A stretch of 63,997 bases of DNA, the filler included, from Stramenopiles sp. TOSAG23-6 (Eukaryota): assembly GCA_900128565.1 (NCBI GenBank). It is 7 parts of 7 records of this genome, joined end to end, with 100 filler letters (N's around TTAATTAATTAA, not from the genome) between each part and the next. Parts side by side here need not be neighbours in the genome. Positions count along the whole stretch, not along the records: positions 1 to 9,346 come from LT636378.1; 6 more parts are not named here. One strand, written 5' to 3'. Position numbers and translations under genes: made by a program. Shown piece by piece: positions 6-63,909 of this stretch (positions are counted from its first letter, which is position 1; each line of letters opens with the position of its first letter). The notes under the pieces were generated by a model that was not told the DNA's origin, did no database searches, and saw nothing but the letters and a program-made list of their open reading frames with translations.

Positions 6-102
6 ATATCCTTGGAAAAAATTTTCAAAAAAAAAAAAAATTGTTAGGTACAAAATTTCGTATGAAAAAAAAAATCATACAAAAAAAAAAAATAAAACAT
101 AC
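6..102 (-). mobile_element. Introner-family intron (GT donor; 3' end approximate)
   Basis: AT|GTATGTTTT donor, TTCATACGAAATTTTGTACCTAAC core, TTTTTCCAAGGATAT end. Confidence 0.7.
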
Positions 103-4972: not shown

Positions 4973-7900
4973 TCAGTGAAAAGGAGCTTTACTTTTTATT
5001 TGAGCTTTCTTTGCCTTTTCTCTTTTAGTTTGCAATAATTTAAGCATTCTATCTCGCTTTCGCTTGACACGATTTTCTGTAGGCTCTGAATTTGTAATAC
5101 GCCCCGCAATGGCCGCAGCTGCATTTGCATGTAGCATTTTTTTATCTGGATTATTTCGCATTTCTTTGCAATGTTTTCTTCTTTGTTCATTTCGTCGTTT
5201 TTGTTTAAGTTCATCATATGGTGATGATGATCGTGTTGAAGGTGATGTTTTCATTACATTTTCATTTTGAAGTTTTGTAGGTGAATGCACTTTATCATCA
5301 TTACAATGATTACATCGTATCGCTGCTCGTATAATTGACAGTCCAGACACAGTTTTTGCCCATAGAGAACGCGATGTATCTGATAGATCATTTTCTATCG
5401 CTGAAGATTGAAAAGACTGAAAAAAAAGTAGAAGTCCTTTCATTCCATCTTCATCTAAATTATATATTGTGAAAATATATTTCTTTTGTATAATTTGTTA
5501 GGTACGAAATTTTTATAAAAAAAAAAATAAATTCGAAATTGAAAAAATATAAAACATACATGTTCATTACAAAATTGTATGATCTCTTGTTGAATGTTAT
5601 TGATATTATTACCATCAATAGTAAATCCAAGATCGAACAATATACTTGAAACTTTTTCATTTGAGACATTTCTTTCCTGTAATCGATTTTTTTCTTTTGT
5701 TTGAAGTATTTCATAAATATACTTATATTTCATTACTTCACCGAGCAATCCATTATGATGGATTTCCTCTTTACAATTATTCCAAATTGTATCTACAGAT
5801 AATTGAAGTCGTGTAGCAATTCCCTGTGACTCTTGAATCATACTCTTGACTTCCTTCAATGCGACACGTCTAGCTTCTTCCAATTGTTTAACATATTGCT
5901 TACATGTATTTTGGAAAAATATTTGAAAAAAAAAACTTAATTTTTGTTAGGTACAAAATTTCGTACGAAAAAATAAATTCGAATTTGAAAAAAAAATAAA
6001 ACATACATCGTTGAGAAACTCCAGCAACAAGAGTATCAGACACGCGATTTCTTTCCGTTGTGGCTACACCAAGTTCATCCCATAAAGGTGAAAGATTGCT
6101 CAATGGAACAGCTATCTGTGATGCCATAGTAGCACAAGAGTTCTTAATTTCTAATTTAGATTGTAATTGACGATTTTTTTCACATTCAGTTTTAAGTTTT
6201 GCAGAAAGATTCGCAATTTCTTGATCGTTTTCTTCAGCTTTACTTGACATTCTTTGAATTTTTCTTTGTAATATTTTTTCTGAGGTTCGAAGGTAATGAT
6301 TTATCTTATTAGCGGCAATAAGACGTTCATCAATATCTTGTGGTTTCATCTTTATATGATCTATATTTGTGTTACTTATAGCTGGTGAATTAGGGTGTAC
6401 AGTACTTGGTGGTGGTGGTGTCGGCGGTGGCGCTTCAAAACACGGAGACCCTGAATTATGTGAAAAATCTCCACACTCTGTCGATGCATCTTGATGAGCG
6501 CTAATATAGACCAACATTCGTTCTTCAAAGTCTTGTGCTACTGCAGATTTTGCCATTTCAAATTTCATTTGAAGTGCTTTGCATGTTCTTTGTGCACTAC
6601 GGATATCTTCCGTTGCTTTTTTTGTACGTTCATCTGCCAATAACTTTTGTCTTTCAGATGTACGTAATTTAGTATTTACCTCTGCTATATTAGAAATTAA
6701 CCACTTAAAATGTTCTACTGTTACAGTTTTATCCGTAAATGTCTCTATTATATTACTTACATCATTATCTTCACGTAATAATTCTTTCAACTCTGACTTG
6801 GCTTCTTCTATACCTCCACTAGTACATGACATTTGAAGTTCTAGGGATTCAATTCTATCTTCTAAACTTTGAGGTTGTTCACCAAAACACCGATTATTAT
6901 CCAAACCAGCTTGGGTGTAGGTTTCTTCATCAAAGTCAGAAGTTTCCGGAATTAAAAATCCACATAGTTGTTTACCTATAGTAGTCATTGCACTTTTTAC
7001 ATATTTAACATCTTCACTGTGTTTGGAATTTAACAAATTACGATATAATTTTGTACATTGCCTAGTCAAACGACCATTTCTATTTCGAACTTTTCGTGTT
7101 GAAAAGATCATCGCAAAGATCGAAAGTTTTCTCATTATAGATGATCGTTTACTCTTATTCAAGCGCAAGGATATTAATGCCTTTAGTTGTCTTAAAAGTG
7201 ATTCTTGGCATTCAATTCCTTTTCGAATTGATATATTGTGAAAAATATTTTTTTTTTTGAAAAAAAATGTTAGGTATACAATTTTCTACCAAAAAAACAA
7301 AATTTGAAATTCATCTATGAAAACGTGCATGCTTTCGCCTCAAGAATTGATGTCTTCCGAAGAATTGCTGAATGTAATAATTCTCTCTGATGTATTGTGA
7401 AAAAATATTTTTTTTTTTTTTACCGAAAAAAAAGAAATTCGTTAGGTACAAAATTTTCTTAGTAAAAAAAATAAATTCGAAATTCAAAAAAAAACATACA
7501 TGTTCCATTACCGAAGTTTTTCGACTTGAAGAAGACTTTTTATCCTTATTTAGAGATTTCTTTTTCTTTTCATTTCTTTGCTCTTTTAACGATTTCATTA
7601 ACTGAGCCTGCGATTTCCGATATCTCTCATTAGCTACAATTAGAGCAGCTTTTCGACGTAAAAGTATTGTGTCTTGCACAGCCACCTGACGTTTATGAAT
7701 TCGCGCATCTTTGTCGCTTTTTTTGTGCTTTCGACGCAATATTTTAATTTCATTTTGTTTGGACATTTTCCAATTTTTATGACGTTTGGCTTCTGCCTTT
7801 TGCCTTCTTAATAAAGACACTCTAGCCTTCTTCAACTTTTCCAAATTCATTTGTACTATTTTACATTTTCTTGTCTCTTTCTCTGCCAAACGAAGTAAGT

Positions 7901-8789: not shown

Positions 8790-8850
8790 CTGTATTGTGA
8801 AGAAATAGTATAGAAAAAAATTCGTTAGGTATGACATTTTGTATGAAAAC
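8790..8850 (-). mobile_element. 3' half of a family intron ending in AG, at the APC5/kinesin junction
   Basis: TTTTCATACAAAATGTCATACCTAAC...CACAATACAG|gca aat cgt; no normal 5' half. Confidence 0.6.
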
Positions 8851-9346
8851 ATCCCTATCATAGAGCAATCACCCGCAAGTGAAGGGCCAACAGCCACTAA
8901 TGCAGCCTCAGCAACAGCAAGTGATGATAACCCTGCTAATTCACGCATACCTAGATTTCGTGCTCTTTCAGCACAATGCTGTAATAACCATCCCGCATCT
9001 GGATCTCTAGATGCTATAGCTATACGGTGTAGCATAGATAGAGCAAGGGCTACACTATTATGTATTGTAAAAAATATATTTTTTTAAAATTCGTTAGTTA
9101 CAAAATCTTCTACCAAAAACAAATGTAGTAAAAATTTTAAATGTAAGATGGACACAAACATGATCTTCAGTTTCCTGCGCAGTATAAATGGCTTCCTGTA
9201 GTGACGTCACTGCTTCTTTTAAATGACCAAAATGATAATGTAAACCAGCGATACTCAGCGCAGAGTACTGCGGTCGAAAATTTTTGGATACGTCTGAAGA
9301 CAACTCAGTATTTGCATTGCGTGAATTTGAAACACCAGAACTAGTT
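8851..9346 (-). CDS. ANAPC5: Anaphase-promoting complex subunit 5 fragment (exons 9346-9160 and 9059-~8851)
   Basis: QYSALSIAGLHYHFGH..LQEAIYTAQETEDH-NSVALALSML and LLQHCAERARNLGM resemble the APC5 TPR region. Confidence 0.75.
9060..9159 (-). mobile_element. Introner-family intron, GT-AT (diverged copy)
   Basis: cat|GTTTGT...TAACTAAC...TACAATACAT|aat; keeps the APC5 DHxxxxxxLSxL register. Confidence 0.8.
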
Positions 9347-9532: not shown

Positions 9533-9998
9533 ATGCTTGAGAATCAATAATATTTTTACATAAAATAGTTTTTGTGTTTTTTGTAGTATTGCAATTATCA
9601 AGTTGAATCATATTTGTATTATCAGACATTATATTTTTTTCATTGTTTGTGTTTTTTGTAGTATTGCAATTGTCAAGTTGAATCATATTTTGATCGCCAT
9701 TCCTAAAATGACGCTGCGTACGCAAAAACTCTTGTGCTATATCAGGTTGTTCAAATCCATCAATTTGTTTCTTTTTACAATCCGGGCAAGTAATGTGAAA
9801 AATATTTTTGTTTTTCGTTAGTAAAAGAAATTCGTTAGGTACAAGATTTTCATACAAAAAATAAAAAAAAATTAAAAATGATGAAAACATACAAAACCAA
9901 TCGCCTTTGGGTAAACTAACGAGAATTGGTTGTAAACAAAACATATGAAACCCTCTATCACATTTATCACATAAAAGCAGTGAATCATCGTCGCTATC
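9533..9998 (-). CDS. PHD-finger protein fragment (exons 9998-9893, 9787-9533)
   Basis: [37 protein letters not shown]. Confidence 0.8.
9788..9892 (-). mobile_element. Introner-family intron, apparent GT-TT
   Basis: ttt t|GTATGT...CACATTACTT|gc ccg restores WFCPDC. Confidence 0.7.
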
Positions 9999-10106
9999 AT
10001 GTATTTTGAAAAATATTTCCAAAAAAAAAACTTAAATTTGTTAGGTACAAAATTTCGTACGAAAAAAAATCGATTTTTTTGTAAAAAAAAAAATAAAAAA
10101 AAATAC
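9999..10106 (-). mobile_element. Introner-family intron, GT-AT
   Basis: cat|GTATTTT...core...CAAAATACAT|gat. Confidence 0.75.
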
Positions 10107-10874
10107 ATGAGTGTGTTTTGAAGTGGATGGAAATGTGTATTTTTTCGTAAGTTCTCTTTTTGAAGCGCCTTTTAATGAATTTCCCTTTATTTTGGAATCT
10201 TCATTTTGGTTGCCATCTTTTTTTTCATTAGGGTTAGGAGAATCTTCAGGAAGTCCTCCTATCATATATGTATTTTGGAAAAATATTTGAAAAAAAAATC
10301 GTTAGGTACGAAATTTCGTACGAAAAAAAAAATTTCGAATTTGAAAAAACATAAAACATATACACTGGTCCACATTGAGATGGTTCCACATTTAATGTTT
10401 CGGGTGTTTTTTGACCATTACTATTGCCAGTTGTATTCCAATGTATTTTGGAAAAATATTTCAAAAAAAAATTTAAAAAAATTGTTAGGTACAAAATTTC
10501 GTACGAAAAAAAAATTGAAAAAAAAATAAAAACATACATTAGTAATTTCTGTGTTGAAATCTTCGGAAAATGCCAACGCCCATTGGAATACATCATTTAC
10601 AACTATACCAGTTTCAGCATGTATTGACGCTGCCATTGCGATTTTTGTATTCAATACAACTTCACCGGTTTTTGCAACTGTAACGATGTTATATTCATCA
10701 TTTTTTACAATCCATTGGCCTTTAGCATTTGCATGTATTTTGGAAAAATATTTCAAAAAAAAATTTGAAAATTTTTTAGGTACAAAATTTCGTACGAAAA
10801 AAAAAATGTAGACAAAAAATTAAAAAAAAAGATAAACGTACACCAATTGCAAAATTATTTGTTCCCGAACCCAT
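10107..10874 (-). CDS. Hypothetical multi-exon protein (10874-10842, 10732-10538, 10440-10358, 10263-10107)
   Basis: Open frame MGSGTNNFAIG-ANAKGQWIV..ITN-WNTTG..PVYM-IGGLPED after removing three family introns. Confidence 0.5.
10264..10357 (-). mobile_element. Introner-family intron (boundaries slide within a TATATG direct repeat)
   Basis: Full core; 94 nt must be removed to keep the frame. Confidence 0.7.
10441..10537 (-). mobile_element. Introner-family intron, GT-AT
   Basis: aat|GTATGT...CCAAAATACAT|tgg. Confidence 0.8.
10733..10841 (-). mobile_element. Introner-family intron, GT-AT
   Basis: ggt|GTACGTTT...CCAAAATACAT|gca. Confidence 0.75.
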
Positions 10875-11017
10875 AGATTGTTGAATAATATATAAATGCT
10901 TCATTTTGTTAGGTTTTGTTAGGTAAAAAATGTTGAATAATACATAAATGCTTCATTTTGTATTTGTATCTACAATTAGGTACAAAATGAAGTACAAATA
11001 TAATTTTTATTTTGGTT

Positions 11018-11674
11018 CTATATTGATGATTGTGTAGAGATTTTGGAAAAAAAAATCAAAAAAAAAAACGTTTTAGGTTTAGGTACAAAGTTTTCAAAAA
11101 AAAGAAAATAAGATGAATAAAAAACGTACATGATAAGAAAAGCATCCTGTTCAGCTGCTGCTTGAATGGTGACTGTTGATGCTATCATTCGGTTTTCTAC
11201 ACCACGGGCAATACTATCAAAAACGTTGGATATTTTATTTTTTGCTTTTTTTTCTGCTGTTGCTGCTGCATCGACAGCACGATTGACACTGCCACCAGGC
11301 ACAGCCATAGCACTAAGAGCAAGAGCAGGCAAAGCTTTATGTTGTGTCATAGACTCAACTTCAAGCATAGATAGACCATCTTGGTTATATTTGTTATATT
11401 CGTTGGAAGCTGTTTTCATTGAAGGAGACATTCCCGCGAGTTGTTCAAAACAATATCCTTGAGGGTCCTTGACACCCTTATCATATGAGTAGAAACAATG
11501 CATACCTGAAGTACAATCAGTATGAGAAGTACACGCGCGAAGTCCTAACTGATCAGCTGTTTGGTTAGTTGTGTTAATTTCAAGTGAATTTTCTAATTTT
11601 GAAGCAACGGCAAAGTCTGTTGACAAGAAGAAAGTTAAAAAGAAATGTAACTTATACAGTACTGCCACATCCAT
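11018..11674 (-). CDS. Secreted hypothetical protein with a small Cys motif; family intron near the 3' end (donor 11129, acceptor ~11036-11040)
   Basis: Signal peptide; CTSHTDCTSGMHC motif; at|GTACGTTTT..TTTGTACCTAAACCTAAAAC. Confidence 0.55.
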   Translation of the reverse strand: MDVAVLYKLHFFLTFFLSTDFAVASKLENSLEINTTNQTADQLGLRACTSHTDCTSGMHCFYSYDKGVKDPQGYCFEQLAGMSPSMKTASNEYNKYNQDGLSMLEVESMTQHKALPALALSAMAVPGGSVNRAVDAAATAEKKAKNKISNVFDSIARGVENRMIASTVTIQAAAEQDAFLIMYVFYSSYFLFFENFVPKPKTFFFLIFFSKISTQSSI

Positions 11675-13603: not shown

Positions 13604-14060
13604 TTATGAAACTCGAGATTGCTCTTCAACCATTTTCATCTCAATACGTTTCTGTGTTTCCATATATTTGGCGATACAACGATCAGTACAGCTTTTCTCT
13701 CCTAATTCGAGCTCAGGCTGGATTGTACGTCGTTATACAAGCATATTTCTTTGTGAGTCAAGGGTGATGCAATTATACGAAAAAAAATAGGTAAAGGAAA
13801 ACAATATAAATACATGCATAATTTGAAAGGTGTATGTCAATGTTTGTATTGAATACAGTACATATATAGAAAGGGAAACTTACATTTCTGACGTCTGTGA
13901 CACATTTCTTCCAGCACATTCTTGTCATACGGTTAAACATATCTTGAATACATTGAACTTCAATTTCTGCTACAGTCAGTGGATTTACATCTCCATTACC
14001 AAATTGTCCCTGTGGAGGTGGTGGTGGAGCCTGTGCTGCTGACGATCCAAACCAAGACAT
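13604..14060 (-). CDS. TIM10: Mitochondrial small Tim chaperone Tim10 (exons 14060-13884, 13717-13604)
   Basis: DMFNRMTRMCWKKC..N-PELELGEKSCTDRCIAKY twin CX3C motif. Confidence 0.9.
13718..13883 (-). other. Canonical GT-AG intron, not of the repeat family
   Basis: GTAAGT...TCCAG, 166 nt, restores Tim10. Confidence 0.9.
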
Positions 14061-17619: not shown

Positions 17620-18650
17620 TTTTTCTTTGTTTTTTAGTTAGGGTTAGGGTTGTTGTTGTATTGTCTTCATCGCATCTTTTTTGTTTTTTTGTATTTGTTT
17701 TTGCACTTTTTGTAGATAATCCACTATCACTANTTCGTGNTTTTTTTNCCCACNGGTGCAGATTTAAATATAACTTTACGCAATGTTGTTGATAGTTGTA
17801 CAGGTTTTGTAAGTAAAACACATTGTTGGACATCAAATAAAGCCATATATTGAAATGCTTGTAAGGGAGGACATAATGGATAATTATCGTTTTTCGTGTT
17901 TTTGTATTTCGTATTTTTCGTATTTTTCGTATTTTTCGTATTTTTCGTATTTTCAAATACAATACTTTGTGAAATTTCGTCATTTTCAGGAAGAATAACC
18001 TCAACTATATAAGAATTCTCTGGTGCATCTTTTTTTGTATTTCTACGAAATTGTAAATTATCAATGTAATGTGTGGAAAAAATGACAAATATGTTTTTTT
18101 TTGTTAGATATTATAATATTATATTAAAAAAAAAAAAAAAAAATTTTGAAAAATAATTTTTTTTTCATCAAATGTAGTGTTAGTAGGGTTAGGGTTGCTA
18201 CTAGGGTTGTGTAATGTTAGGGTTAGGGTTAACGTACATAATTTGAACTTGAAATGAAGTACAAGATAAAAGCCATTCATCAAATGTATTAACAATGACG
18301 GCATCGTCTCTATACCATTTGCCTGTCTTTTTCAATGCATTTCGAACCATTTTTTTATTTCTGAATAAAATCATCGCTAAAGTAGGTTCAAATATTCCAC
18401 TTTTCGGCTTGAAAAGATCAAGATTTTTTAATGGCTCAACAACACTTCTATACAAAAAAAGACTAGGTGTACTAGGGTTAGGGTTCGTACTAGGGTTAGG
18501 GTTTACGTTATACAAAAAACCGGAATTTAAATTTTTTGTTATATTTAGTAGTCGACTTAATTTTTGACACCGTAAGGAAGATTCTATCCTCAATGCTAAT
18601 AATTTATTACGTACAATAGGTACATTACTGGACAAATCTGCTTTAGAAAA
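17620..18650 (-). CDS. Hypothetical protein fragment, ends approximate; diverged family intron at ~18115-18237
   Basis: Open frames on either side of at|GTACGTTAACCCTAAC; the 3' half of another copy lies at ~18651-18720. Confidence 0.35.
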
Positions 18651-18892: not shown

Positions 18893-19730
18893 GGTTCATT
18901 ACGCTTCAATGTTGATCCATTTAACGAATCTACTGATGAACAAGTCTTACATGCATTATCCACAGTTGGTATTTCAGAAAATAGCAATTGGATTCAAACT
19001 TCAAATCAAAACGTTGTGGACAAACATGAAAAAACACGAAATCCGACAAACATGACAAACACGAAATATAAGCATTGTGTAATACATCCTTTATTAAGTA
19101 CGGAAATTAAAGAACATGGGAATAATCTAAGCGCAGGACAAAAACAATGCGTCTCTTTAGCAAGAGCAATTTTAAGAAAAACAGAAATTTTGATTTTAGA
19201 TGAAGCTACTGCAAATGTTTGTTTTCAATACTTATTTTCAATATTTATTTATTTATTTTTAATATTTATTTTCAAAAAAAAATTTCAGTTTTTAATGTTC
19301 AATTTTTAATGTTCAATTGTATTTCAAAAAAAAAAAATTTCAAAATTTTTAATTTTCAATATTTATTTTCAATTTTTTTAATGTTCAATTGTATTTCAAA
19401 AAAAAAAAATTCAAAAATTTCAAATTTTTTTTTGTATAGTACATTTCGTACCTAACATATTCACCAAACACTGAAAAAATAAAAAAAATCACAAAACATG
19501 TGGATTACCAAACTGATAATTTGGTACAAAATTTGATACGTAAATCATCCATTTTTCAAAAAGCCACAGTGATTACAATTGCACATCGTATTTCAACTGT
19601 TATTGACTGTGATGTCATTGTTGTAATGGAAAATGGTACAATTATTGAAATGGGATCACCTGAAAAATTGTGTAAGTTAGAGAATGGACATTTTAAACGT
19701 TTATTGGATGCATCAAAAAGAGAAAAGTAA
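18893..19730 (+). CDS. ABCC/MRP transporter, C-terminal nucleotide-binding domain (exons 18893-19216, 19500-19730)
   Basis: [39 protein letters not shown] and TVITIAHR motifs. Confidence 0.93.
19217..19499 (+). mobile_element. Introner-family intron, GT-AT, expanded to 283 nt by internal duplication
   Basis: aat|GTTTGT...TCGTACCTAAC...ACAAAACAT|gtg restores DEATANVD. Confidence 0.9.
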
Positions 19731-22558: not shown

Positions 22559-25500
22559 ATGGACAGAAATTGTGGTGGTAGCTCTGATGCTATCACCACA
22601 GACAATGTGACCAATGATATTAAGAGTATTTCATCAGTGTTATCACAGACAAAACAGAAGAGTCGAAAATCATATGCATCGAAGAATCTAAATAGTCTGT
22701 TAAAACCTGCCCAAAAGCAAAATAAGAGAAGACTAGGAGGATTGGCCAAACTAAGCTCCGTGGCATCGGCGCCAGCTACTGCAACAGTCACTAAAAAGAA
22801 ATCGAAACCATCTGCAGCACTTAGGCAACCAATATACGACCCGACGGCTAAAAATTATTCAAAAAGTGAATTTTCAGCAGCACCAAAACCTTTCAACACT
22901 AAAAGTCTCAAACTAGAAAATTTTGGTCAGGATGCGTCAGTCGCCATTGTCCCCGCCGGTGGGAAAGGTTGGGGCACAACTCCTCCTTCTAATGATAATG
23001 ATTCTACTGCAGATTCTAAACCAAAAGAAAACGTAGTGAAAATGTCAACACACGGTTGGAATGTAAGTAAGAACAATCTAACAAATGAAGAAAAAAACGA
23101 AAACCCTAATGATGACGAATCCACAAGTAAAAAAAATCAACCCACTTGGGCACCGGAAACAAATACATCTAGTAGAATGAATGATGTGTCATCTACAACT
23201 CATCAGCAAGAGAGGAATAATATCTATGATCGAAATTCTTCATATGAACGTCGTGATCGAAATTCTTCTTTTGATCGTCATGATCGAAATTCTTCATATG
23301 AACGTCGTGATAGCCGCGACCAAACTTATTCAACTAAACAAAACATATGTTATACTGATAGAGAATTAGAAGATGAAAGAGAAAGGGAACGTGAGAGAGA
23401 ACGTCAAGAGGAACGCCGCCAAATGATTACAACTGAAAGTCCCAACACATCATCTGATCGTGTAGCATCATCTGATCATGCCGAAGTGTCTCTTGATGAA
23501 CTTGATGTGGAAGATACAATGAACAATCAACTCAATAATTCTAAAAGTTCTAATGAAAATGAAGACAACTCTGAAGATGATTCAATGGCATCTATGATGC
23601 GTCGTAAAGCAGCTGCAGCTGTTGCTAGACGGAAGGAACGCGAACGAGAATTTGATCTGTCAAGAAATCGGGCAACAGAAAAATTGAGAGTTTTAGAAGA
23701 CCAATTAAATAATGAACGAAATTCCAAATTGGTTTCCCCTTGGACAAATAATGAAAGTAAACATGCACAGCATTCAAGATCTGTAAATTTTGTTGATTTA
23801 CAAAATGAAGAAGCTTTCGCATTGTCAGAATTAAAAAAACGCGAAAAAATTCTCCAAGATGAAGTTGAGTCAGAAATATCTAGAGTAGAACAAACCTGTT
23901 CAAATTTAAATTCAAATCCAAATTCAAATGTAGATGATTCAAATGGTGTAGTTTTTCATACATTAACACATAACAAAAATTCTCAAAATATTCAACAAAA
24001 AAGTGTTTCACAAAAGTCACAAAAATATCCGATTCCAGTGGCTAGGCGTTCAAAGTTAAGAAATGAACCAAACAGACAACAAAATACGTCTGAAACGTCT
24101 GAACAAATTGAACAAATTGAAAAAATTGTAGTAAAACCAAAAAGAGGATGTACGTTTTCACAATTTCAAATTTCACAATTTCAAATTTAATTTTTTTTAT
24201 TTTTTTTTTTTTGGTAAAAAAATTTTGTACCTAACAATTTTTTTTTTTGGTAAAAAAAATTTTCAAATATTTTTCCAAAATAAATGGAGTTTAGATTGTG
24301 ATCGATCTGGGCGACCTCTTGATAAAACACAATTAAATAGTGTTTTGCCACTTTCTAGATTATCTCGTGATAATTTACAACATGAAATCAAACCTACACA
24401 AAAACCCAGAAAACGACAATTGTTTGACCCTAAAAGTGGAAAGATGGTTGATATAAAAAAATCAAAACCAAAAACACGAAATAACTCGAGAAAGAATACA
24501 AAACCAAATCGAAGACAAAATTCTCAAAATTCTCAAAAACACAAAAAAAACAATACAAATAAAAATAATAAAAACAATAAAAACAATAAAAATAATACAA
24601 ATAAAAATAATACAAATAAAAATAATACAAATAAAAATAATACAAATAAAAACCCTAACCCTAACACCTCTCCAAACGCAAAGTTGGATAAAGAAGAATT
24701 TCAAAAAAGAGCAGAGAAAAATGATAAAAATAACCCTAACCCTAAAAAAAGACGTGAACATGTGAAAAATAGTTTAGCTGGTCGACGTCGATTGAATAAG
24801 AAAACTTCACCAACACACAAAAATAACCCTAACCCTAGGGTTAACCCTAGGGTTAACCCTACTCATGACGAGAAAAAGTCTAAAAAAACACGAAATCGAC
24901 ATCAAAAAAACAGTAATAAAAGTACAAAGAATGCAAAACACTCTAAAAAACATGAAATGAATAAATTGGACAAAAATAGGATGTTTTCAAGTGGACAGGT
25001 ACAATCGTCAAATCATGTTGTATCGACTGGAACGAAAAATCATGAAATGTTTAAGACAAACCCTAACCCTTCAAACCCTTCACACACGAAAAATAATAAA
25101 ATTTCAAAAAATGAAAAAAATGAAAATTTTAATCAAAATGACACGTGGCTTCCAACACACAATGCAGTACATCAATTAGATGATTCTTTATTATCCTCAA
25201 TGGCAACGTGGGCAGCAACAAGTGATACAAAAACTTTACCTCATACAACACGAAATAATGAGTTATCTAACTCAAATCAAAAATTTGAAGTTCAAAATTT
25301 TCAAAATCATCAAAAGTTTTCAAAAAATAAGATTGGCAATATTGGAATTGGGTTGAATAGTTTAACAGGTACAACTACATGGTGTAACCCTAACCCTACA
25401 CATTCATCTGGAGCTCAATCTGGTTTTTCTGGGTTAGGGTTAGGGTCAGGTTTTTCTGGATTTTCTGTGCCAACTGCTGTTGGAAATGCATTTTCAACAA

Positions 25501-25775: not shown

Positions 25776-27097
25776 ATACAACTGATAATGATGTCATTTT
25801 TTACTATGTACTAAACATTGAAATGAAACATTGAAATGAAACATTGAATTGAATTTGTTACGAAATTTCATACAAAAAAAAAATTGAACTGAATTTGTAC
25901 ATATCTATACAAGGGTTAGGGTTTATCTGGTCATTGTAGGCGATATGGTGTTTATGTAATACATATATTGCATGTATTTAATAATTAGGTTTTTTCAAGG
26001 TTTTTGTACTCAAAATTTGTATTTGTCTTTTTGTTAACTGAGTTGTAACTTGTAATAAATAAAGTTTCAAAATACACAATGCAAAATTGTAATTCAGCAC
26101 AAAAAAAATCGTTAGGTACAACATTTGGCACGAAAAAACATTCTTAACATAAATTGAATAAACAAAAACTTGAAATTGAAAATAAAAATTTCGAGACAAT
26201 TCATTTTTAACATTACATTCAAACAATAAATTTGAAATTGAAATGATATAATATATTATATATATATATAATGTATATAATGTGTTTTATATGTTTTATA
26301 TGAATTGGGCTATTGCTAACCCAAACGATAATCTTGATGATGTAATTTATTTTCATGGACATTTAAAAAAAAAAAAATTTTTTCAAGAAAATTTTCAAAA
26401 ATTTTCAAAAATTTAAAAAAATTTTAAAAAATTTTAAAAAATGAAAATTAAATCAATATTTTTGTTTTTACATTTTCACACAATAGGTACAAAAACCATT
26501 TTGGGCTTGGTGGTAACGCTATTGGGCTAAGGCTATAAAACATCTTCTTACAAAATGTTGTGAGAATACTAGCTAGGGTTAGGGTTTGCTAGACTCTGAT
26601 GAGATTCTCACTAGGGTTAGGGTTATATGTACAGTCAACAACACATATTTTTATATATTATATGACGTCATTGGGATACAATACTTTTTGTATATATCCC
26701 ATTATAATATATCATTAGAGTTGAAAATACCGAAATATAAATATTCAAAGAAATGTAAAACATTTTGATGATTTGAAGTATTGAAAACCCTAACCCTAAA
26801 AATTTAAATAAAATTCAGTGGTCAAAATATCATTTTTTTTATTAGGTACGAAAAAATGGTACAATCTGCTGTTGATATTTCGTGTGTCCGTCAAATGAAC
26901 TGTGTTTCTCTTGTCACTTTCTCCTTGCTCAAATCTTACTACGCTTCTACATGTTTAGTCGACAAATTATCATCGAGAGGTTGTGTACATTTTAACTACA
27001 AGATAGATACATTTATACATACATCTTTATCCATTCATCAATAGTATAGCTCATAGCAGTTCAATCATATNGTTTTTTATTATTCTTTACAAAGCTA

Positions 27098-28094
27098 ATG
27101 ACGACATACAAAGAAAAAACGTCTTCTCCCGTGCTTGATGCCATGGTTCGCTTTCTTTCTTCTGGCGTAGCTGCAACCTTTTCTGAAATAGCAACATTAC
27201 CCATCGATATCACAAAAGTCCGTTTACAAACACAAGGTATAATGCAATGTGGTAATCTAAAATATACAGGTCAGATGCAATGTGCAACAACTATCGCAGC
27301 GGAGGAAGGGTGGACATCACTGTGGAAAGGTGCGGCTCCCGCAGTGATGCGCCAATTCAGCTACACTGGTTTATCACTCATGTTTTATGAACCAATTCGT
27401 GATTTTATTGGTGGTGGTGAGAGTATACACACGTTACCATTCTGGAAGCGTGTTTTAGCTGGTGGGGTTGCAGGTGGCACGAGTATTTACCTCGTCAACC
27501 CAACCGATGTACGTTTTATTATTTTTTTTGGTTTTTNGAAAAAAAAAAAAAAAAAANCGAAATTTTTTTTTTCGTACGAAATTTTGTACCTAACAAATTT
27601 TCAAAAAAAAAAAAAATTTTAATATTTTTCAAAAATACATGTCATCAAAGCAAGAATGCAAAATTCACCAGTACAACTTAACATTATTCAAACTGTAAAG
27701 GAAGTATTTGCTCGTGATGGTATCAAAGGATTCTGGGCAGGTTCATCACCAAATGTAGCGCGATGTTTCATTGGTAATGCATGTGAATTAGGTTGTTATG
27801 ATCAATTTAAAACAATGTAGGTAACCCTAACCCTAATTTGATATTTTTTGAACCCTAACCCAAAGTACTTTTTCCAAAACAAATTTTTCTAACAAAATAA
27901 AAAATTTCAAAAAAAATATTTGTTCACAATGTATGGCACATCTACATTTGGGTATGTCCACAACCAGTGTAAATACGCATTTTATCGCCTCTTCTGGGGC
28001 AGGGTTTGTGTCTGCTATTTTCAGCACACCTGTTGATGTCATAAAAACAAGACTCATGGCTCAAGCTGGTACAAAAAATCAAGCATATAATGGT
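27098..28094 (+). CDS. Mitochondrial carrier, UCP-like (exons 27098-27508, 27641-27816, 27935-28094; 3' end lost at gap)
   Basis: Three PxDxxK signatures: PIDITKVRLQ, PTD-VIKARMQ, PVDVIKTRLM. Confidence 0.93.
27509..27640 (+). mobile_element. Introner-family intron, GT-AT
   Basis: gat|GTACGT...AAAATACAT|gtc restores NPTDVIKARMQ exactly. Confidence 0.92.
27817..27934 (+). mobile_element. Diverged GT-AT intron containing CCCTAA repeats
   Basis: aca at|GTAGGT...TTCTAAC...CACAATGTAT|g gca restores YDQFKTMAH..THFIASSGAG. Confidence 0.8.
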
Positions 28095-28109
28095 GTATGT
28101 TTATACTTG

Positions 28110-28145
<36 letters not shown>

Positions 28146-28173
28146 TTTTTAAATTTTTTTTTTCACAATTTTT
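28095..28173 (+). mobile_element. Probable family intron truncated by the contig end
   Basis: ggt|GTATGTTT followed by A/T tracts. Confidence 0.55.
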
Positions 28174-28273: not shown

Positions 28274-28349
28274 CTTAAATTTGTTAGGTACAAAATTTAC
28301 TATAAAAAAATAAATTCGATTTTTTTGTTAAAAAAAAAATAAAACATAC
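28274..28349 (-). mobile_element. Introner-family intron truncated by the contig end
   Basis: at|GTATGTTTT...AAATTTTGTACCTAAC. Confidence 0.8.
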
Positions 28350-32700: not shown

Positions 32701-35700
32701 CAGAAGAAGTAGAGAAGGAGCAGGATGCTATGAGGCGTTTCGCTGTTGCACAAGTTGCATCATCACTTCGTCGGAAATTACCTGCACTACGAGAGGAAAT
32801 GTTGCATAAAAGTATGTCAATTGAAGCGGCATCTTTTATCCAGGCAATGTGGCGCCGAGCTCAGTGGAATAAAAATATATCAAAGTTAAAAGATGCTATA
32901 CGTAGAAAAGAAATTGAAGCTGCTGCAGCCGAGAGAAAGCGTATAAAAGAAGAAGAAAGACAGAAGCAGTGGGAACTTGATCACCCAACATTAGACCAAC
33001 TTATTATGTCCCTCGAACGTGGTGGAGGTCATCATTGGATGCCTTGGGAAGAGTGCCTCCCAAAATGGCTTGCAGATATGAGCAAAGAGAAACAAAAAGC
33101 AATAAAAAGCCAAGTTGCAAACTATGCAGTTGACTTTGGTAGAAACTCTGGGATGCGTCCTTTTAAAGAAACAGGGAAGGATTTTGATCTATCTGGATCA
33201 CAGATTCGCGAATTACGAATGCATTTAGAAGCAGCAAATTATGTAAAAGAAGTATCAGATAAATTATGGCTGGCACTGGCAGCTGTTTTAGACACAGACA
33301 ACGGTCTTGAAATGTTAGGCCGTTTGCACGTGGAACTACAGGCAAGTTTATTAGTATTTGATTTATGCAAGGAGGAAGATGCTGACGATATTGAAGAATA
33401 TTGGAATCTAAAACAAGGCATACTCAAAGCTCAAAACACGTGGGATGGTTTAAAGGAGCTCCGACCAAAGACTCCGCCACACGGTGTCAAAATTACTATC
33501 GTACGAGCAGAAGATTTATTTAATCTGGAGATGCGTACTGGCTATGATGATGTCGAAAACAAAAGTGATCCTTTTATCATTGTACGTAGAATAACAAGAG
33601 AAAATATAGAAATTGGTCAACTGAATGCAGGCGAGGAAATATTTCGTACAGAGACAATTCAAGATAATCTAAATCCGGATTGGAACAGTTCATTTCTACT
33701 ACCAGTAAAATCTGATCAAATGGGTGTATGTACTAGCAAAGTTGGTCTTAGTTTTGAAGTATGGGACGATGATAAAGACGACCTTGGACTAGATTTACAT
33801 GCTGGACAAAAAGCGAGGAAGTTCATGGGATGGGCGTTTCTCCAACCTTGTCATAATAGAACTTGTTTACAAGGTGATACTTTTACCACAACACTTTTTC
33901 TTCAAAGTTATGATTACTTCGTTGAACATCGAGAAGAAACTACCGATGCTGGTCTTGGTAGTATCACAATAAATGTATCAGTTGGTTCACCAATCCGCTC
34001 GAAATCAAACGAAGAAGACAATGAAGCGGGGGAGTCTAATACTTTGGAACGTTTTGGTATTCAAGTAAAACTGAAGAAGTTAAAGCCACTTGAAAATGAA
34101 ATCACGTCCTTATGCAAAGATAACGCTAAACTAACAGCTTTATGGAATGAGATTGATGATGATCACAATGGTCGTATAACATTTCGAGAGTTGGAAAAAT
34201 TCATACAAAATCGTTGGAATGAAATGACGAGTAGAACAGCTATGCGTCGGGCATTTTATAAAACAATGAAATCTACTTTAGGAGATAATGAGAAAGAAGG
34301 ATCAATAGAACTAGATGTTCATTCTCATTCTATCAAGCGCAAACAATTTCGAACTTTATTGCGAAATATTTTCTTTTTTACACAAGCATTTTTTATATTT
34401 GAGAAAATTGAAGATACTGATTACAATGAGGTGAACGAGGAGGATGATAAAGATAGACTCGATCGTAGAGAGTTTAGCCGTGGTCTACAAATGCTAGGTC
34501 TATCATTGTCAGACCAACGTATAGAAGAAGAATTTAATGCTTGTGATAGTGATAATGAGGGTAGTATATCATTTGAAGAATTTAGTTCTTGGTTAGCTGA
34601 GCATATAGTACCCACACCTGTAGATGAAGAAATTATTCAATTTGAGAAAATGAAACAGGCAGCAGCGGAATCCGTTGCTAATCTTATGGATGCAAAGGCA
34701 ACAGTAGTTGTTCATTCCGAAGGCGTTTCAGCCGAGGAACTGGTAGAATTAGATTATAAACGTACACACGAACGCCATAAAGTAAGACATCAAGCATTAT
34801 CTGAGTGGAAAGAAATGTACCCACGTGCGCAACCTCTAGAAAGAGTAGCTTCCATGTACGTTTTTATCATCAATTTCCAAATTTATTTGTTTCATACGAA
34901 ATTTTGTACCTAATGAATTAGAAAAAAAATATTTTTTTACATTACATATATCAAGATCGGGAATATGATGACCCTGCATTGAATCCATTTTATGTAAAAC
35001 CGGAAATGCCTGAGGCTATATATATGGATGCAGCAACAGCACAGACGCTAGTACAACTAAAAAAACAGGATAATATATGGAAGAAACGAAAACGCATTGC
35101 TACTCGAAATGGAGGTAGAGGTGAAAAAGTAGGTGATCGTGGGTTTGGAGGAGCAATGCATGTACGTTTTATATGAATTTCTAATTTAATGTTTTTTTCA
35201 TACGAAATTTCGTACCTAATGATTTTTTTTTGAAATATTTTGTCAATATTCATGGTCTACGAGGACCGACAGCAGTTATGACTGTACATGGACTTCGTGG
35301 ATCAAAGGGGAGGCTACCTGCTCCAGTTACGTACCAAATATCTAACGATCCTCTTCTAGGTGGTAGAGAGTTGAAAAAGAAATCTGAGAAACGACGAAAA
35401 CAACAGCTCAAGTTTGAGAAACGATTAGAGTCACTCGGTAAGAAACTTGGTATGTTTTCATCATTAAATTTAAATTTATTTTTTTTCCTACGAAATTTTG
35501 TACCTAACAAATTTCGAATTTATTTTTTACAATACATGTGTTGGAGGAAATTCAATTGCATCAGCCCGTAAAAGAAAACAAAACCTAGAAGCAATGAAAG
35601 CAAAGCAGATTTCTCTTGATTTAAAACTCAAGCAAAAGCTAGAAATGGCAAATAAAAGGAGACAGTCACTAATGGAAAACCGTGTCAAGAAAATTAAGAA

Positions 35701-42680: not shown

Positions 42681-43251
42681 ATGTGTACAAAAAAACAGGC
42701 ATATCTCATTATACTAATATTTATAGGATACTCCAACGCGGTAGATTCGGAGTGTGAATCTTTAACCGAAGGTGGTTGTACACCAAATCCAATAATGGCG
42801 TCAGCTGATAAAAAAACAACAGTGTCGCATGCTAATACGTTGGGCTATAATTTTGAAGTCTGGGGAAAAGTTCAAGGTGTTTGGATGCGAAAACATTCCA
42901 AGATGAAGGCGGATGAGCTCAATATTACAGGTTGGATTCAAAATACGTCAGACAAAACTGTAAAGGGCCAAATGTTTGGCACAAGAGACAACATTAAAAA
43001 ATTCCAGAATTGGTTGGAAAAGGAAGGTGCTCCAAAGGCAAAACCAAGCAGAGCAAAATTCTCTGTCGTAGAAAATGTTCAAAATAAGGTTCTTTTCCAT
43101 GTATGTTTTCATCATTTTTTTCAAATTTATTTTTTTATACGAAACTTTGTACCTAACAATTAAAAAAAAAAAAAAAAAAAGTATTTTCACAATACATGAT
43201 TTCACAATTAAAAAAGTGAAACTTGCAAATGGTACAGAATGGGCAGTTTGA
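42681..43251 (+). CDS. Acylphosphatase with N-terminal signal peptide (exons 42681-43100, 43198-43251)
   Basis: FEVWGKVQGVWMR and GWIQNT..TVKG motifs; C-terminal DFTIKK is recovered by splicing. Confidence 0.9.
43101..43197 (+). mobile_element. Introner-family intron, GT-AT
   Basis: cat|GTATGT...CACAATACAT|gat ttc aca att restores the last acylphosphatase strand. Confidence 0.88.
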
Positions 43252-43413: not shown

Positions 43414-46400
43414 CTAATTTTTTTTTCCTTTTGTATGAGTTTCTCTAATAAGTTGAGCAAGACTTCGATTACGCTTACCCCAACCTCCACTAGTAGAACG
43501 ATCGCAGTTATTATCCTTCCATGCACTTTTAGGGTGTTTGGAGGTTTTAGGGCTAGGGTTAGTAGTATTTATTTTATGACTAGTCTCCTGAGTTGGAATT
43601 ACCCAGGATTTTTTCGTATAATTAGGGTTAGGGTTAGTTATACTCGATTTTCTACTGACCAAGTTTGGCGTGCTATTATTTGTTCTTCGTTTCACAATTT
43701 TTTTTGATTGTCTTTTATTTTTAGAATTTTTAGAATTATTTACTGACGCATTTTTTGGCGTGTTTGTAGCAGCACTGGCATAGGATTTTTTGATTGGAAT
43801 ATATCGAGTAGAAGAACTTTTTGAATCTTTACCAAATCCTATAGATCCTATACGGTTTTTCGTACCTAATGAATTTCGAATTTGTTGAGAATGTTTCGTA
43901 TTTAATTTATTGTTATTGCTCTTGGACAATTTCACGTTTTCCTGAATATTTGAGTTATTTGAGTTATTTGAGTGATTTAAGCTATCGCGAGTAGAAAGAC
44001 AAGCATAAGGTACAATAGGTACAGGATATTCCCGCACACTTAATTCATTGATGGCTTGTATTACAATATTTGTATTTCCATGTTTATAATTCTTTTTATC
44101 ATCTGATATTGGTGACATTTCAATATTATTAGGATTATTAGGATTATTAGGATTCGGACAAAGATACAATAAACGCTGAAAAAGTTCACCAAAAGCAACT
44201 TGAACGCGAAACATCATAAAAGATCCGGCTGCTGCATTAATACCAGGGTTTAGCGGATCTTCTATAAATATAGGAGATAAATGACGATGTTGGACTAGTT
44301 CCGAACCATTCCGAGAGAAAGACATTATGACGTCATTACCAATACAAATAGACTGTGAATCAAACGTGTGTAAAAAACCAAGTAACATTTGCCCTATATC
44401 ACTATAGTACCCATTTGAAACGTTCATCTGAAAAAAGAAAATCATTAATAACGACAACGCATAACTTCCCAACCCTCCGCGGTACACATTACTAAGACCT
44501 TTCGATACTAAATATCTTTTAATAACCATAACAAGAATCCGAAGCTCCGGCTTATTCTTTAATTGTTGTTTGATAAATTCACATGCAGCAATTCCATGAT
44601 GACCCCCAATCGCTTTATGTCCAATTGTGACATCAATAGGGACTCCAGATTTCAATTTTGCCTTCAAAACAGGCACTTCCGTTGTGCCAATTGTTTTTGC
44701 TGATATAACCCAAGGCTGTTCTTTCAATTCTTGTTCAAGAGAACGCAACAATCCTAGGGTACGAAACGCATCGATTGCGCCAGAGTGCTGCACACCAAAA
44801 TCAATATCAGAGTGACCGGGTAACCATAGACCAGTCGCAAAAGATCCAAAAGCAGCACATTTTGAGGATGGCCATAATCTTTTTATTAATTTTTGAATGC
44901 CATCGACTGCAACATTTGCATCTTTTCTAGAATAATGTTTATAATTTTTCCGGTGACTAAAATTTTCTATATTATTTTCTATACTAGTAATCATTGCATG
45001 TAAATCATGCGAAAGTTTCAATTCAGGTAAGGGTCGACTAGAGCATCCATTTTCATTTACATGTTTTACATTTTTTACATTTGAAGGTTTATGCGAGGGT
45101 GACGTTGAAGGAATATTCAATTTAGCACGAACAATGTTTGATGTCCACACAGATTTTCTATTATTTTGGGGTTTCGTGTGATTCAACTCGATTGTATTTG
45201 ATGGTTGTACCGTTTGTTTTTCAGAGTCACAAATAGATTGTTTTACTACTTTGTTGGGCATCTCACTCTTATGTTCACTGGCTGGCATCCCAAATCCAAT
45301 AATAACACGCACAGTCTCTGGTGGCATTGATGAAAAATTTGGTAAATTTATTTTCACCCACCTCATTTCTTCTAAAGTTACTTTTAATATCTGATGATCA
45401 GCACATAAAAGTGAAAAAATACTTTCATCACTTTCTTGTGCTAGTCTATGAAATTGATAATCTTTTCTTACCCAATAAAAATTGCCTAAATTACATTGCT
45501 GGATTTCTTGAGGATTAGGCATTCGAATATTTGGCATACTTGGCATATTTGGCGATATATTTCCAGTCTCTAGAGTAGATTTATTATACACTGTGAAAAA
45601 TATTTTTTGTTTGTTGGAAAAATTGTTAGGTACAAAATTTCGTACGAAAAAAAAATCGATTTTCAAAAAATTAAAACGTACATTGTGACTCACTGTCGTG
45701 ACAGACTTGCCATAAGCAATCTCAGGTGAGCATGATGATTCTGTACTTAATTTTGTACTTGATGGCGTGTACACTCGAGGAGTTTGAGGAGGTTTTGAAC
45801 AGGGGCAATCATGCATTATGAAAAAATATTATTGTAGTTAAAAAAAATGTTAGGTACGGAATTTCATCCGAAAATGTTTTTTAGTAAAAAAAAGAAAAAA
45901 ATTCGAAACGGGAGAAACATTCAATTTTGAAAACGTACATCGTTCATTGAATTGGCTAAGGCATTTTTTCTAGAATTCTTTTTATCAATATTTCGTTTTT
46001 CAATATTGGCATTGACTATACCTTGAGAAGATACACAAGAAATAGTTGCATTTCGTTCACAATCCTCCGCAGATTTACCATTTATTGAATCTGTACCAAA
46101 TTTCGTACTTGAAGAATTTCGGATCTCTTTATAATCATTATCAATATTATCCTTATTTTCATTCGGGTGATAATCTGTACCAAATTTCGTACTTGAAGAA
46201 TTTCGGATCTCTTTATAATCATTTTCATTCGGATGATATTCACTTGGTACATTTGAATTTGCATCCGTCGTATATTTTGAGCCCGACGAATTTCGAATTT
46301 GTTGAGTACGTGATATTTTTCCACTGTTAAGTTTTATTTGTATATTATTTTCTTCACAATCATTTTTATCAGTATCTTTTGTCCCAATATTTGTCCCTGT

Positions 46401-55161: not shown

Positions 55162-56278
55162 ATGATGGGTAATACTCACTTGACTAAGGACTCAGATTCA
55201 ACTCTAACTTTGACCATGGGTTTATTATTTTTTGGTATATGCTTAGTATTTATCGGTTTATATTTCTTAGTCATTCTCCGGAAAGTCCGACGAAAATACG
55301 CGTTCTTAATAGCATTTGCTATACTCACTTTCATACCTATATTATCCTATATTGCTATATCCTCTGTTCCTTTGTTGAGTGAGCCAAGTCAATTTTACTC
55401 AGAGCAAACAAAAAGAGGAAAGAACTTCCAAGGAGAAGCACATAAGATAGATATAACAGAGAATCCACATATAGGCCATGGCATGTGTAAGTACACTAAA
55501 AGTTCTCGCCACAGAGTGGCTGATAGCAATGGGAAATCATGCTCCTGGAGGGATATTTTACCAAGTGGATGTTGTAACCCTAACCCTAATGTACCAACTT
55601 CGGTAACTAATGAACTTAAAAATATTTCATCAATAACAGTTCCTTTCTCAAATAGTTGCAATGGTTGTAATTTGAATAAAAAATCATGTTCCGAGTATGA
55701 ATATTGTGTGACGTGTTGTATGAAATTATATGAAAACCCAAAATTTAGCGTAAATGTTACAATTGACACGACACCTAACCCTAACCCTATTAAAACATCC
55801 AATAAAACAGACATTTCCAATAACCCTAATAATAACCCTAATAGTGCGAGTGTTGTAGGATTTGAAATGCCTCCAGGAACAGGACAAACTTGGACGATTG
55901 TACAAAATGTAGCGTCAATATATGAATCTCCGTCTACGTCGGGAAATGTTATCGGTCGATTTATAAAGGGGACAAAGGTACGATTTTCATAATGAATTTC
56001 AAATTTATTTTTTTTTTTTCTAAATATTTTTCGTACGAAATTTTGTACCTAACAAATTTTTTTTTTTTTTTTTTTTTTTACAACATGTACGATTTTCAAC
56101 TGAGAATAGGTCATTAGGGTTAGGGTTTCGTTCTACAAAGTGGGCAAAATTATCAAGTCGAATGTATGTGAAGCATTCGGCACTTGCTTCACTTCATGTT
56201 TCTCCATTTGATTATTGTCGTGATGATGTAGACCCTAACCCTAATTCTACATCAAATCCTTTACATTATTTTGAATAT
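55162..56278 (+). CDS. SPRING1/C12orf49-like membrane protein with an SH3b-like insertion (exons 55162-55977, 56087-56278; continues)
   Basis: VADSNGKSC..SGCC..SCNGC..CSEYEYCVTCCM cysteine pattern. Confidence 0.75.
55978..56086 (+). mobile_element. Introner-family intron, GT-AT, with a 12-bp direct repeat
   Basis: aag|GTACGATTTTCA...CAACAT|gtacgattttca. Confidence 0.8.
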
Positions 56279-56392
56279 GTATGTTTTATTTTTTTTTTTT
56301 TTTCCGGTAAAAAAAAAATCGATTTTTTTTATAGTAAATTTTGTACCTAACAAATTTTTTTAGATTTTTTTTCAAATATTTTTCCAAAATAC
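56279..56392 (+). mobile_element. Introner-family intron running to the contig end
   Basis: tat|GTATGT...TACCTAAC...CCAAAATAC. Confidence 0.8.
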
Positions 56393-63164: not shown

Positions 63165-63909
63165 ATGTCGAATTCAGTAATTTTAGCGACAGCTGGTTAT
63201 GATCACACTATCCGATTTTGGAAAGCTTCTAATGGAGTTTGTTATCGAACGTTGCAGTTTGCAGACTCACAGGTGAATCGCTTAGAAATTACTCCAAACA
63301 AGAAATACATTGCAGCTGCAGGTAACCCTCATGTTCGCTTATTTGAAATTGATAGTGGAAACCCTAATCCAATTTATTGCTATGACGGTCATACGGCGAG
63401 TGTTACTGCTGTAGGCTTTCAGAAAGATAGTAAATGGATGTACACAGGAAGTGAAGATGGGACAGTCAAAATTTGGGATTTGAGAGCTCGTGGTTGTCAA
63501 AGAGACTATGAGAGTTCTGCCCCTGTGAATAGTGTAGTTTTACATCCTAACCAAGCAGAACTTATTTCTGGCGATCGAGATGGTGTTATTAGAGTGTGGG
63601 ATTTGACTGCAAATAAATGCGTCAAAGAATTTAGACCGGATGGTAAGATGTTCGTTTTCATCATGAATTTCAAATTTATGTTTTTTTCGTAGAAAATTCC
63701 ATACCTAACGATTTTTTTTTTTTTAAATTTTTCACAATACATTGCAATTCAGTCGACTTCTATAGCAGCGGATGCTTCGTTATTTGTAGCAGCAACTGCA
63801 ACTGGGCACTGCTACGTATGGCGCCCACGTGACGATTACAAACCTGTTCAAAGATTCAAAGCACATAATGGCTATATTTTAAAGTGTCAACTCAGTCCGG
63901 ACTTGAGAT
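63165..63909 (+). CDS. LST8: TOR complex subunit LST8 (exons 63165-63649, 63743-63909; continues)
   Basis: [42 protein letters not shown]. Confidence 0.97.
63650..63742 (+). mobile_element. Introner-family intron, GT-AT
   Basis: aag at|GTTCGT...TACCTAAC...CACAATACAT|t gca restores PDGKIAIQS; the next AG is out of frame. Confidence 0.88.

Follow-up and report, generated by a model that had tools for sequence, protein, structure and literature searches.

How does an intron come to end in AT, and what does it mean if the exon in front of it ends in AT as well? The question arises at positions 5904-6008 (minus strand) of a 63,997-nt stretch of stramenopile DNA, a chain of separate contigs that we call the window throughout. 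The site reads CGAT/GTATGTTTTATTTTTTTTTCAAATTCGAATTT...TCGTACGAAATTTTGTACCTAAC...AATATTTTTCCAAAATACAT/GTAAG, with a donor that starts as GTATGTTTT. The predicted intron (5904..6006, 103 nt, GTATGT...ATACAT, phase 1) follows an exonic AT (6007..6008), which has been proposed to be the upstream copy of a duplication, and without it one open frame of 426 codons and one of 148 become continuous. An AG acceptor was also tried for this intron and rejected, as the AG at 71 nt leads into the wrong downstream frame. Judging from reading frames and homologues, the intron belongs to a repeated family of likely mobile origin whose members are very probably cut out exactly from GT to AT.

The intron family and its excision

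A search with nhmmer gave 35 matches to the family in the window at E<=0.01. The curated family comprises 27 complete introns, seven donor-only copies (introns that run into a contig or window end past the donor) and three acceptor-only copies, one of them tentative; all family counts cover 64 kb of one genome. Family introns have a median length of 100 nt (range 88-283) and follow the consensus (A)T/GTAYGTTTT...TCGTACGAAATTTTGTACCTAAC...T-rich...YAT/. They resemble each other over their whole length in unrelated genes, with copies in at least 12 different open reading frame (ORF) contexts, and an alignment of 17 copies has conserved donor, branch and 3' blocks. Each copy has its own signals. 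The donor, GTAYGTTTT, is yeast-like; it is followed by a conserved block whose last part is the branch motif TCGTACGAAATTTTGTACCTAAC, then by a run rich in T and the 3' block AATATTTTTYCAMAATACAT. The branch motif CTAAY mostly lies 30-52 nt from the 3' end of the intron. The matches and the alignment bear out the view of a preliminary description of this DNA that it holds a repeated intron family of likely mobile origin, and the conserved blocks bear out its view that the element supplies both the GT donor and the branch site.

GT opens 26 of the 27 complete introns (GC opens the other) and, as had been claimed, AT closes 26 of them, with TT at the end of one; none ends in AG. Of 26 tabulated introns, 25 have a pyrimidine (C or T) at position -3. 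Exonic AT precedes 28 of the 34 donors (22/27 in complete introns, 6/7 in donor-only copies), so that the 29 counted earlier was essentially right; the remaining exons end in GT (three), TT, TG and AG (one each). In the window as a whole AT precedes 10.5% of 6,558 GT dinucleotides, which gives a binomial P = 2e-21 for 27/33, a calculation that lacks one copy of the final set. Relative to the flanking ORFs every one of the 34 donors is in sense orientation, in agreement with the sense bias reported before.

Removal from GT to AT yielded single long ORFs in all ten genes tested. After five such removals 1287 of 1292 possible codons are open in gene A, and the open codons number 1932 in gene C, 1107 in gene E, 2530 in gene G and 1047 in another gene; in a mitochondrial carrier gene all 249 possible codons are open. 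In a table of flanks, 20 of 25 introns are flanked on either side by 24 or more open codons; the remaining five rows are two window or contig edges, one intron near its gene's stop codon and two mis-set donors. Homologues place the junction to the residue at three introns. At the first carrier intron (27509..27640, plus strand, 132 nt, GAT/GTACGT...ATACAT/GTC) exons 1 and 2 fall at adjacent residues in four of four homologues (NPTD/VIKARMQ). At the second, a diverged AT-type intron (27817..27934, plus strand, 118 nt, AAT/GTAGGT...CACAATGTAT/G), exons 2 and 3 are contiguous with homologue P0004 (188/189/190), and at a long family-type intron in an ABC transporter (19217..19499, plus strand, 283 nt, AT/GTTTGT...AAACAT/) the exons meet at 1266/1267 of a solved ABCC5 chain and at 1379/1380 of MRP1. 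A fourth junction, at 9788..9892 (minus strand, 105 nt, TT/GTATGT...ATTACTT/), joins PKGDWF to CPDC and completes W-F/C-P-D-C, which we take to be the PHD-finger motif. On the evidence of frames and homology we take as shown that the family exists, that its copies lie in sense orientation, what length is excised, and where these four junctions fall (three from homologue alignment, one from the PHD-finger motif); with the frames restored as well, the scarless GT-to-AT excision put forward in the preliminary description appears sound.

AG dinucleotides lie between the branch block and the 3' end in seven of the 27 introns (a count that leaves out three rows with a CTAAY match upstream of the family branch block), and using them would shift the frame in four of the seven (6006, 10106, 34856 and 45681). 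An AT-AC reading was rejected as a general rule, as the 3' dinucleotide would then vary. We prefer GT...AT because GT and AT are the near-invariant dinucleotides.

Conventional splicing signals are present in the same window. A Tim10-like gene has an intron of unique sequence (13718..13883, minus strand, GTAAGT...TCCAG) in which only the AG acceptor keeps the frame, and only with that acceptor are the positions of the Pfam profile zf-Tim10_DDP contiguous (33/34). Since this normal GT-AG intron exists, the AT acceptor is a property of the family and not of the whole genome, and YAG and YAT ends coexist; the window has at least 27 complete family introns versus one confirmed GT-AG intron. The Tim10-like exon itself ends in AAT, so the observation that was named as one that would count against a duplication, the same exon-terminal AT before non-family introns, is borne out in part, though by one intron only and with AT expected at 10% of sites. 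Scans for more introns that were not biased towards the family were noisy. They gave one more AT-type intron, a diverged one at 18064..18237 (minus strand, 174 nt, AT/GTACGT...ATTACAT/) that contains CCCTAACCC motifs, and the candidates 22250-22098/22125 and 61759-61521. The intron at 22098-22250 (minus strand), in a JTB-like gene, has the donor GTAAGA and three AG acceptors and one AT acceptor (CCCATACAT/), all in frame.

The carrier gene also illustrates how such introns fare in annotation. In a protein search its first exon is 100% identical to the entry P0001, with the source name 'GSMAST32...', and the next relatives are carriers of a pelagophyte and other stramenopiles (54-58% identity). 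The source name and these relatives together point to a MAST-3 type marine stramenopile as the source organism. The public model P0001 (27098-28097, plus strand), the single gene model compared, forces GT-AG at both AT-type introns and so drops conserved residues, giving NPTDVPRMQ instead of NPTD/VIKARMQ at the first junction and losing several more residues at the second. If this misreading were general, the published gene catalogues of the lineage, estimates of how complete they are and claims of gene decay would in our view need to be re-examined.

Origin of the repeated AT and removal of the introns

The preliminary description explained the two ATs by transposition. A miniature inverted-repeat transposable element (MITE) with GTAT...ATAC termini would insert at AT, rarely at other dinucleotides, and duplicate these 2 bp; the downstream copy would become the acceptor and the element would supply the donor. 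We consider this model plausible but somewhat less likely than not. In its favour, exon end and intron end are the same in 23 of the 27 introns, including TT/TT at 9892-9788, and the ends are short palindromes. Eight of the 12 contig ends that adjoin linkers fall inside family copies, suggesting many near-identical copies that break the assembly. Intron phases (10:3:4) fit those expected from coding AT sites (8.0:3.9:5.2, p=0.61), which a fixed terminal AT predicts likewise. The model also has a precedent in introner families that are described as carrying their own 5' site and gaining the 3' site from the duplication (PMC9860276).

To call an introner duplication, one or more positions must agree between the two flanks of a locus while differing from locus to locus; a dinucleotide that stands unvaried both ahead of the donor and at the end of the intron is ambiguous by that criterion (PMC9860276). 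A call of AT duplication is ambiguous here, since both ATs are near-invariant across copies. The sole locus-specific match is TT/TT at 9892-9788, where the exonic TT sits in the W-F-C motif, and against it stand four introns whose exons end in GT, GT, TG and AG and which still end in AT; four of five non-AT exon ends are thus paired with AT instead of the matching dinucleotide. On this comparison, the AT acceptor as a MITE target-site duplication is a plausible proposal rather than a demonstrated one. Within-locus matches at position -2 number 23/26 versus 21.2 expected, a value reached in 394 of 5000 permutations, and the small excess is due to the one intron with TT at both places; the permutation test found no locus-specific matches at -6..-3 or +2..+5. 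The terminal AT (26/27) is better kept than the AC that precedes it.

The ends give a similarly mixed picture. They had been described as reverse complements of each other, which is true of ATGTAT/ATACAT where position +4 is T (13/26), while copies with a GTAC donor share only ATGTA/TACAT. As to the claim that ATGT often occurs at both junctions, the downstream exon begins with G in 18/26 tabulated introns and with GT in about 6/26. Inside the element the inverted match is 3-4 nt long (GTAT/ATAC or GTA/TAC) and comes to 6 nt only with the flanking AT included, so that terminal inverted repeats of at least 6 nt, as scored in the introner survey, are absent within it; those of MITEs are typically at least 10 nt. 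The 5' arm of the match lies within the donor consensus, and +4 is C in 12/26 introns with no compensating change. The strict sense orientation also tells against a MITE: in the 64-kb window no antisense copies were seen and at most two decayed copies lie outside genes, in one ORF-free spacer. No transposase was found among the window ORFs scanned against Pfam, and we know of no transposon superfamily that a 2-bp AT duplication would fit.

Altogether, we lean slightly towards the terminal AT being a fixed part of the element, namely its 3' splice site, with the exonic AT reflecting a preference for certain insertion sites or upstream exons rather than a duplication. That the AT...AT repeat arose from a 2-bp duplication by a DNA element is a serious contender which falls a little short of an even balance. 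The statement as a whole, a mobile GT...AT family together with the lean towards a fixed AT, is likewise offered tentatively. Distinctly doubtful is the fuller scenario in which a 2-bp AT-duplicating DNA element invaded MAST-3 genes and the duplicated AT, lying just where an acceptor is required, drove, or exploited, a major spliceosome that reads YAU beside YAG.

Several observations weigh against the reading that we prefer. The sole intron with another end than AT has TT there, behind an exon that also ends in TT (9892-9788), a pairing with a chance of 1 in 26, and the ATGTAT/ATACAT termini are palindromic. The frequency of exonic AT, 82%, is higher than that of a typical upstream-exon consensus. 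DNA-transposon signatures are reported for 59-78% of assessable introner families (PMC9860276). As to excision, we infer the splicing of the family from reading frames and homology only, and where the exon ends in AT the cuts can slide by 2 nt (AT...AC) with an identical product, so that at such sites GT-AT termini are favoured rather than proven. Finally, a decayed and shortened copy at 8790..8854 (minus strand, 65 nt, AG/GGATGT...ATACAG/) fits no GT...AT removal. No GT...AG removal keeps the frame there either; the piece is stop-free and in frame inside ORF 7311-9083, and gene A is a 1287-codon ORF with it kept. This copy has probably been retained or exonised and may be a former intron that has come to be translated.

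Because a normal GT-AG intron coexists with the family, we infer removal by the major spliceosome, which would accept U for G at the last intron position and so read YAU as well as YAG. Going by the motifs, U1 and U6 would read GTAYGT and U2 would read CTAAC. The YAU at the close of the conserved 3' block, in most copies 30-52 nt downstream of the branch motif, would serve in the second splicing step; intervening AG dinucleotides would be skipped and the coding sequence restored without a scar.

It is very unlikely that a minor (U12-type) or otherwise specialised spliceosome tolerating non-AG 3' ends splices the family instead, in which case the AT end would stem from that machinery and not from an altered major spliceosome. 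U12-type introns have variable 3' termini, so that a non-AG end is tolerated, and coexist with GT-AG introns; GT-AT is among the rare terminal pairs reported for them. Here too a conventional GT-AG intron coexists, as if there were two classes, and GTATGTTTT matches the U12 donor consensus as commonly given (GTATCCTTT) at 7/9 positions. U12-type introns are, however, defined by the donor RTATCCTT and a branch site about 10-26 nt from the 3' end, whereas the family has the donor GTAYGTTTT, exactly of the major type (GTATGT/GTACGT), and a branch motif CTAAC that mostly lies 30-52 nt from the 3' end; donor, branch consensus and branch-to-3' distance all fail to fit. An Rfam scan of the window gave 0 matches, so no small nuclear RNA gene was found there. 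Least likely is a non-spliceosomal removal, either at the DNA level as for ciliate internal eliminated sequences or by an endonuclease and ligase guided by end pairing: the repeated dinucleotide at both boundaries, the short inverted ends and the pairing of intron ends in 4/6 minimum-energy folds would suit it, but the elements are present in assembled DNA, are strictly sense and conserve major-type donor and branch motifs, the copies fold no better than shuffles (z -1.9 to +0.6), and paired-end co-variation is not significant (816 and 378 of 5000 permutations).

Further copies and features of the window

The window is AT-rich (26-41% G+C), eukaryotic and gene-dense. Its contigs run from 9346 down to 9304 bp and are joined by linkers of 44 N, TTAATTAATTAA and 44 N (9347-9446, 18763-18862, 28174-28273, 37584-37683, 46989-47088 and 56393-56492); since the contigs are separate, neighbourhood across a linker is not biological. 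The stretch is contained in 13 sequencing runs, four of which are RNA with small shares, and we draw no claim on habitat or expression from them. A protein search with the exon adjoining the focal intron gave no match. A metagenome scan with P0001 returned only L001 and L002, two distant loci that match over 27-28 residues at 57-62% identity and lack copies of the family, and a scan of viral contigs with the family core motif gave 0 matches.

Around the focal intron, family introns on the minus strand are found at the window edge (6..102, AT/GTATGT...GGATAT/) and at 5462..5559 (98 nt, AT/GTATGT...ATATAT/, phase 0), 7231..7328 (98 nt, AT/GCACGT...ATATAT/, phase 1), 7390..7499 (110 nt, AT/GTATGT...ATACAT/) and 9060..9159 (100 nt, AT/GTTTGT...ATACAT/). 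The one at 7231..7328 has the GC donor, and its phase chain is consistent. Behind the first linker, also on the minus strand, a donor part is cut by the contig end (9447..9532, AT/GTATGT), and complete introns lie at 9999..10106 (108 nt, AT/GTATTT...ATACAT/), 10264..10363 (100 nt, GT/GTATAT...ATATAT/), 10441..10537 (97 nt, AT/GTATGT...ATACAT/) and 10733..10841 (109 nt, GT/GTACGT...ATACAT/), the second and the last with a non-AT exon end. Near the 3' end of its gene, the copy at 11026..11129 (minus strand, AT/GTACGT...) has only a tentative 3' end (CACAATCAT/).

On the plus strand, the 3' end of a family intron stands at a contig start (18863..18892, ...CACAATATAT/) and is followed by an ABC-transporter exon, and an intron of 136 nt lies at 24150..24285 (AT/GTACGT...ATAAAT/). 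The ORF-free spacer holds a weak or decayed copy at 25800..25925 (nhmmer E 4.6e-4) and a decayed copy with no intact donor at 26060..26160 (E 1.7e-8), both on the minus strand. Donor parts cut by contig ends are seen at 28095..28173 (plus strand, GGT/GTATGT) and 28274..28349 (minus strand, AT/GTATGT); an ancestral exon-terminal GGT at 28095 was considered and not upheld, the homologue alignment being too variable there. Further plus-strand introns are those at 34856..34947 (92 nt, AT/GTACGT...TTACAT/), 35162..35253 (92 nt, AT/GTACGT...ATTCAT/), 35450..35537 (88 nt, TG/GTATGT...ATACAT/, a non-AT exon end) and, near the end of an acylphosphatase gene, 43101..43197 (97 nt, AT/GTATGT...ATACAT/).

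The minus strand then has introns at 45586..45681 (96 nt, AT/GTACGT...CACAGTGTAT/, with an out-of-frame AG 5 nt before the end) and 45811..45938 (128 nt, AT/GTACGT...ATGCAT/), a 3' part at a contig end (46929..46988, ...AAAACTCAT/), a donor part cut by a contig end (47089..47139, AT/GTATGT) and an intron at 47907..47999 (93 nt, AT/GTACGT...TTACAT/). The plus-strand intron at 55978..56086 (109 nt, AG/GTACGA...CAACAT/) follows an AG exon end; downstream of its putative AT end, at 18 and 23 nt, two AG acceptors would keep the frame as well. Its own first 12 bases, GTACGATTTTCA, are repeated directly after the AT end (55978-56110), perhaps left over from a second copy or from some rearrangement. 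The remaining copies are at 56279..56392 (plus strand, AT/GTATGT..., cut by the contig end 2 nt before its expected end), at a contig start (56494..56586, minus strand, 93 nt, AT/GTATGT...ATACAT/), in a PPR gene (59761..59930, plus strand, a long intron of 170 nt, AT/GTACGT...ATACAT/), in a WD40 gene (63650..63742, plus strand, 93 nt, AT/GTTCGT...ATACAT/) and at the window end (63910..63997, plus strand, a cut donor part, AT/GTATGT).

Some other features deserve mention. The family core (for example 5955-5990, minus strand) contains two perfect 12-nt palindromes, AAATTCGAATTT and TTTCGTACGAAA, and in predicted folds a 6-bp hairpin GUACGA/UUGUAC adjoins the branch motif of the element. The motif CCCTAACCC occurs 26 times in the window (12 on the plus and 14 on the minus strand), in coding sequence (as N-P-N-P), introns and spacers; its abundance seems far above chance, by impression rather than by a computed expectation. 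A telomere-like 13-mer, AACCCTAACCCTA, is scattered over the window (for example at 24653, 25388, 26584, 27825, 43633, 55578 and 63046). At its presumed start, the PHD-finger gene has a tandem duplication of about 50 nt (10880-10965, minus strand; CAAAATGAAGCATTTAT.TATTATTCAACA...). Finally, the ORF at 61670-63028 (minus strand) carries a TylF macrocin-O-methyltransferase domain (E 4e-61) and would be extended by the candidate GT-AG intron 61759-61521; because the TylF family is mainly bacterial, gene transfer is possible for this ORF.

Comparison with known intron families

Introners, the transposon-derived repeated introns of marine protists such as Micromonas, Aureococcus, Chrysochromulina and others, are the closest general model. 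Like the family described here, they are many similar short introns in unrelated genes whose element carries splice signals and whose mRNA is unchanged, and one type, with its own 5' site and a 3' site from duplication, follows the very logic of the preliminary description (PMC9860276, PMC11282704). They differ in three respects as they are presented there: introners are GY-AG while our family has a YAT 3' end, their duplications are 3-9 bp and locus-specific in contrast to an invariant 2-bp AT, and inverted repeats count for them from a length of 6 nt, as against 3-4 nt inside our element (PMC9860276, PMC11282704). Introner surveys would miss the present family because they begin with annotated introns and expect AG or AC 3' ends (PMC12130899).

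The MITE-derived introns of Fritillaria borealis (AG-AC, AG-AT) are similarly transposon-like and have non-AG 3' ends that include AT; their removal is ascribed to an adapted major spliceosome, and rare GT-AG introns persist at old positions (PMC11282704). Their 5' end is non-canonical (AG), however, and their boundaries are diverse, whereas GT, a branch motif and a single 3' dinucleotide are conserved here (PMC11282704). The introner elements of Amoebophrya share with our family a marine protist host, repeated introns, direct repeats that overlap the boundaries and inverted end repeats (PMC7789003). Unlike ours, their direct repeats are variable and 3-5 nt long and their inverted repeats are 8-20 nt and form hairpins; there is no fixed terminal dinucleotide and U1 was undetected, while the donor here would fit U1 and end pairing is minimal (PMC7789003). 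Nor does the family have the features of the nonconventional introns of euglenids, diplonemids and Amoebophrya, which lack conserved termini and pair extensively between their ends: it has GT in 26/27, AT in 26/27 and fold z of -1.9 to +0.6. Strong predicted structure is reported for fungal introner-like elements and was not found in our family. Those elements resemble it in being repeated introns with a strong gene bias and no clear duplications or inverted repeats, and they are interpreted as spreading via RNA by reverse splicing; they are canonical GT-AG introns, unlike the family here (PMC9860276).

A literature search, judged by titles and abstract starts, found no description of a genome-wide GT-AT intron class, and (supplements excluded) nothing on MAST-3 introns and no matching family among non-canonical introners; the string 'splic' is absent from the main text of one paper on single-cell genomes of MAST, its supplements excluded. 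A conserved GT...YAT class that outnumbers GT-AG in the window would be a new 3' splice-site code, and through the family one could study, in a natural setting, how the second splicing step reads the final base of an intron. The family also lets one ask, on a small scale, whether splice sites can be created when a transposon inserts and only afterwards come to be recognised by the spliceosome; if an AT-duplicating invader were the family's source, a target-site duplication would be the origin of a new, genome-wide 3' splice-site dinucleotide. In kind, the family is already known from introners and from the MITE-derived, non-canonical introns of Fritillaria and Amoebophrya. It stands apart from them in its combination of features: donor and branch site are fully canonical, the 3' end has one fixed dinucleotide other than AG, and within the window its introns outnumber those of the GT-AG type.

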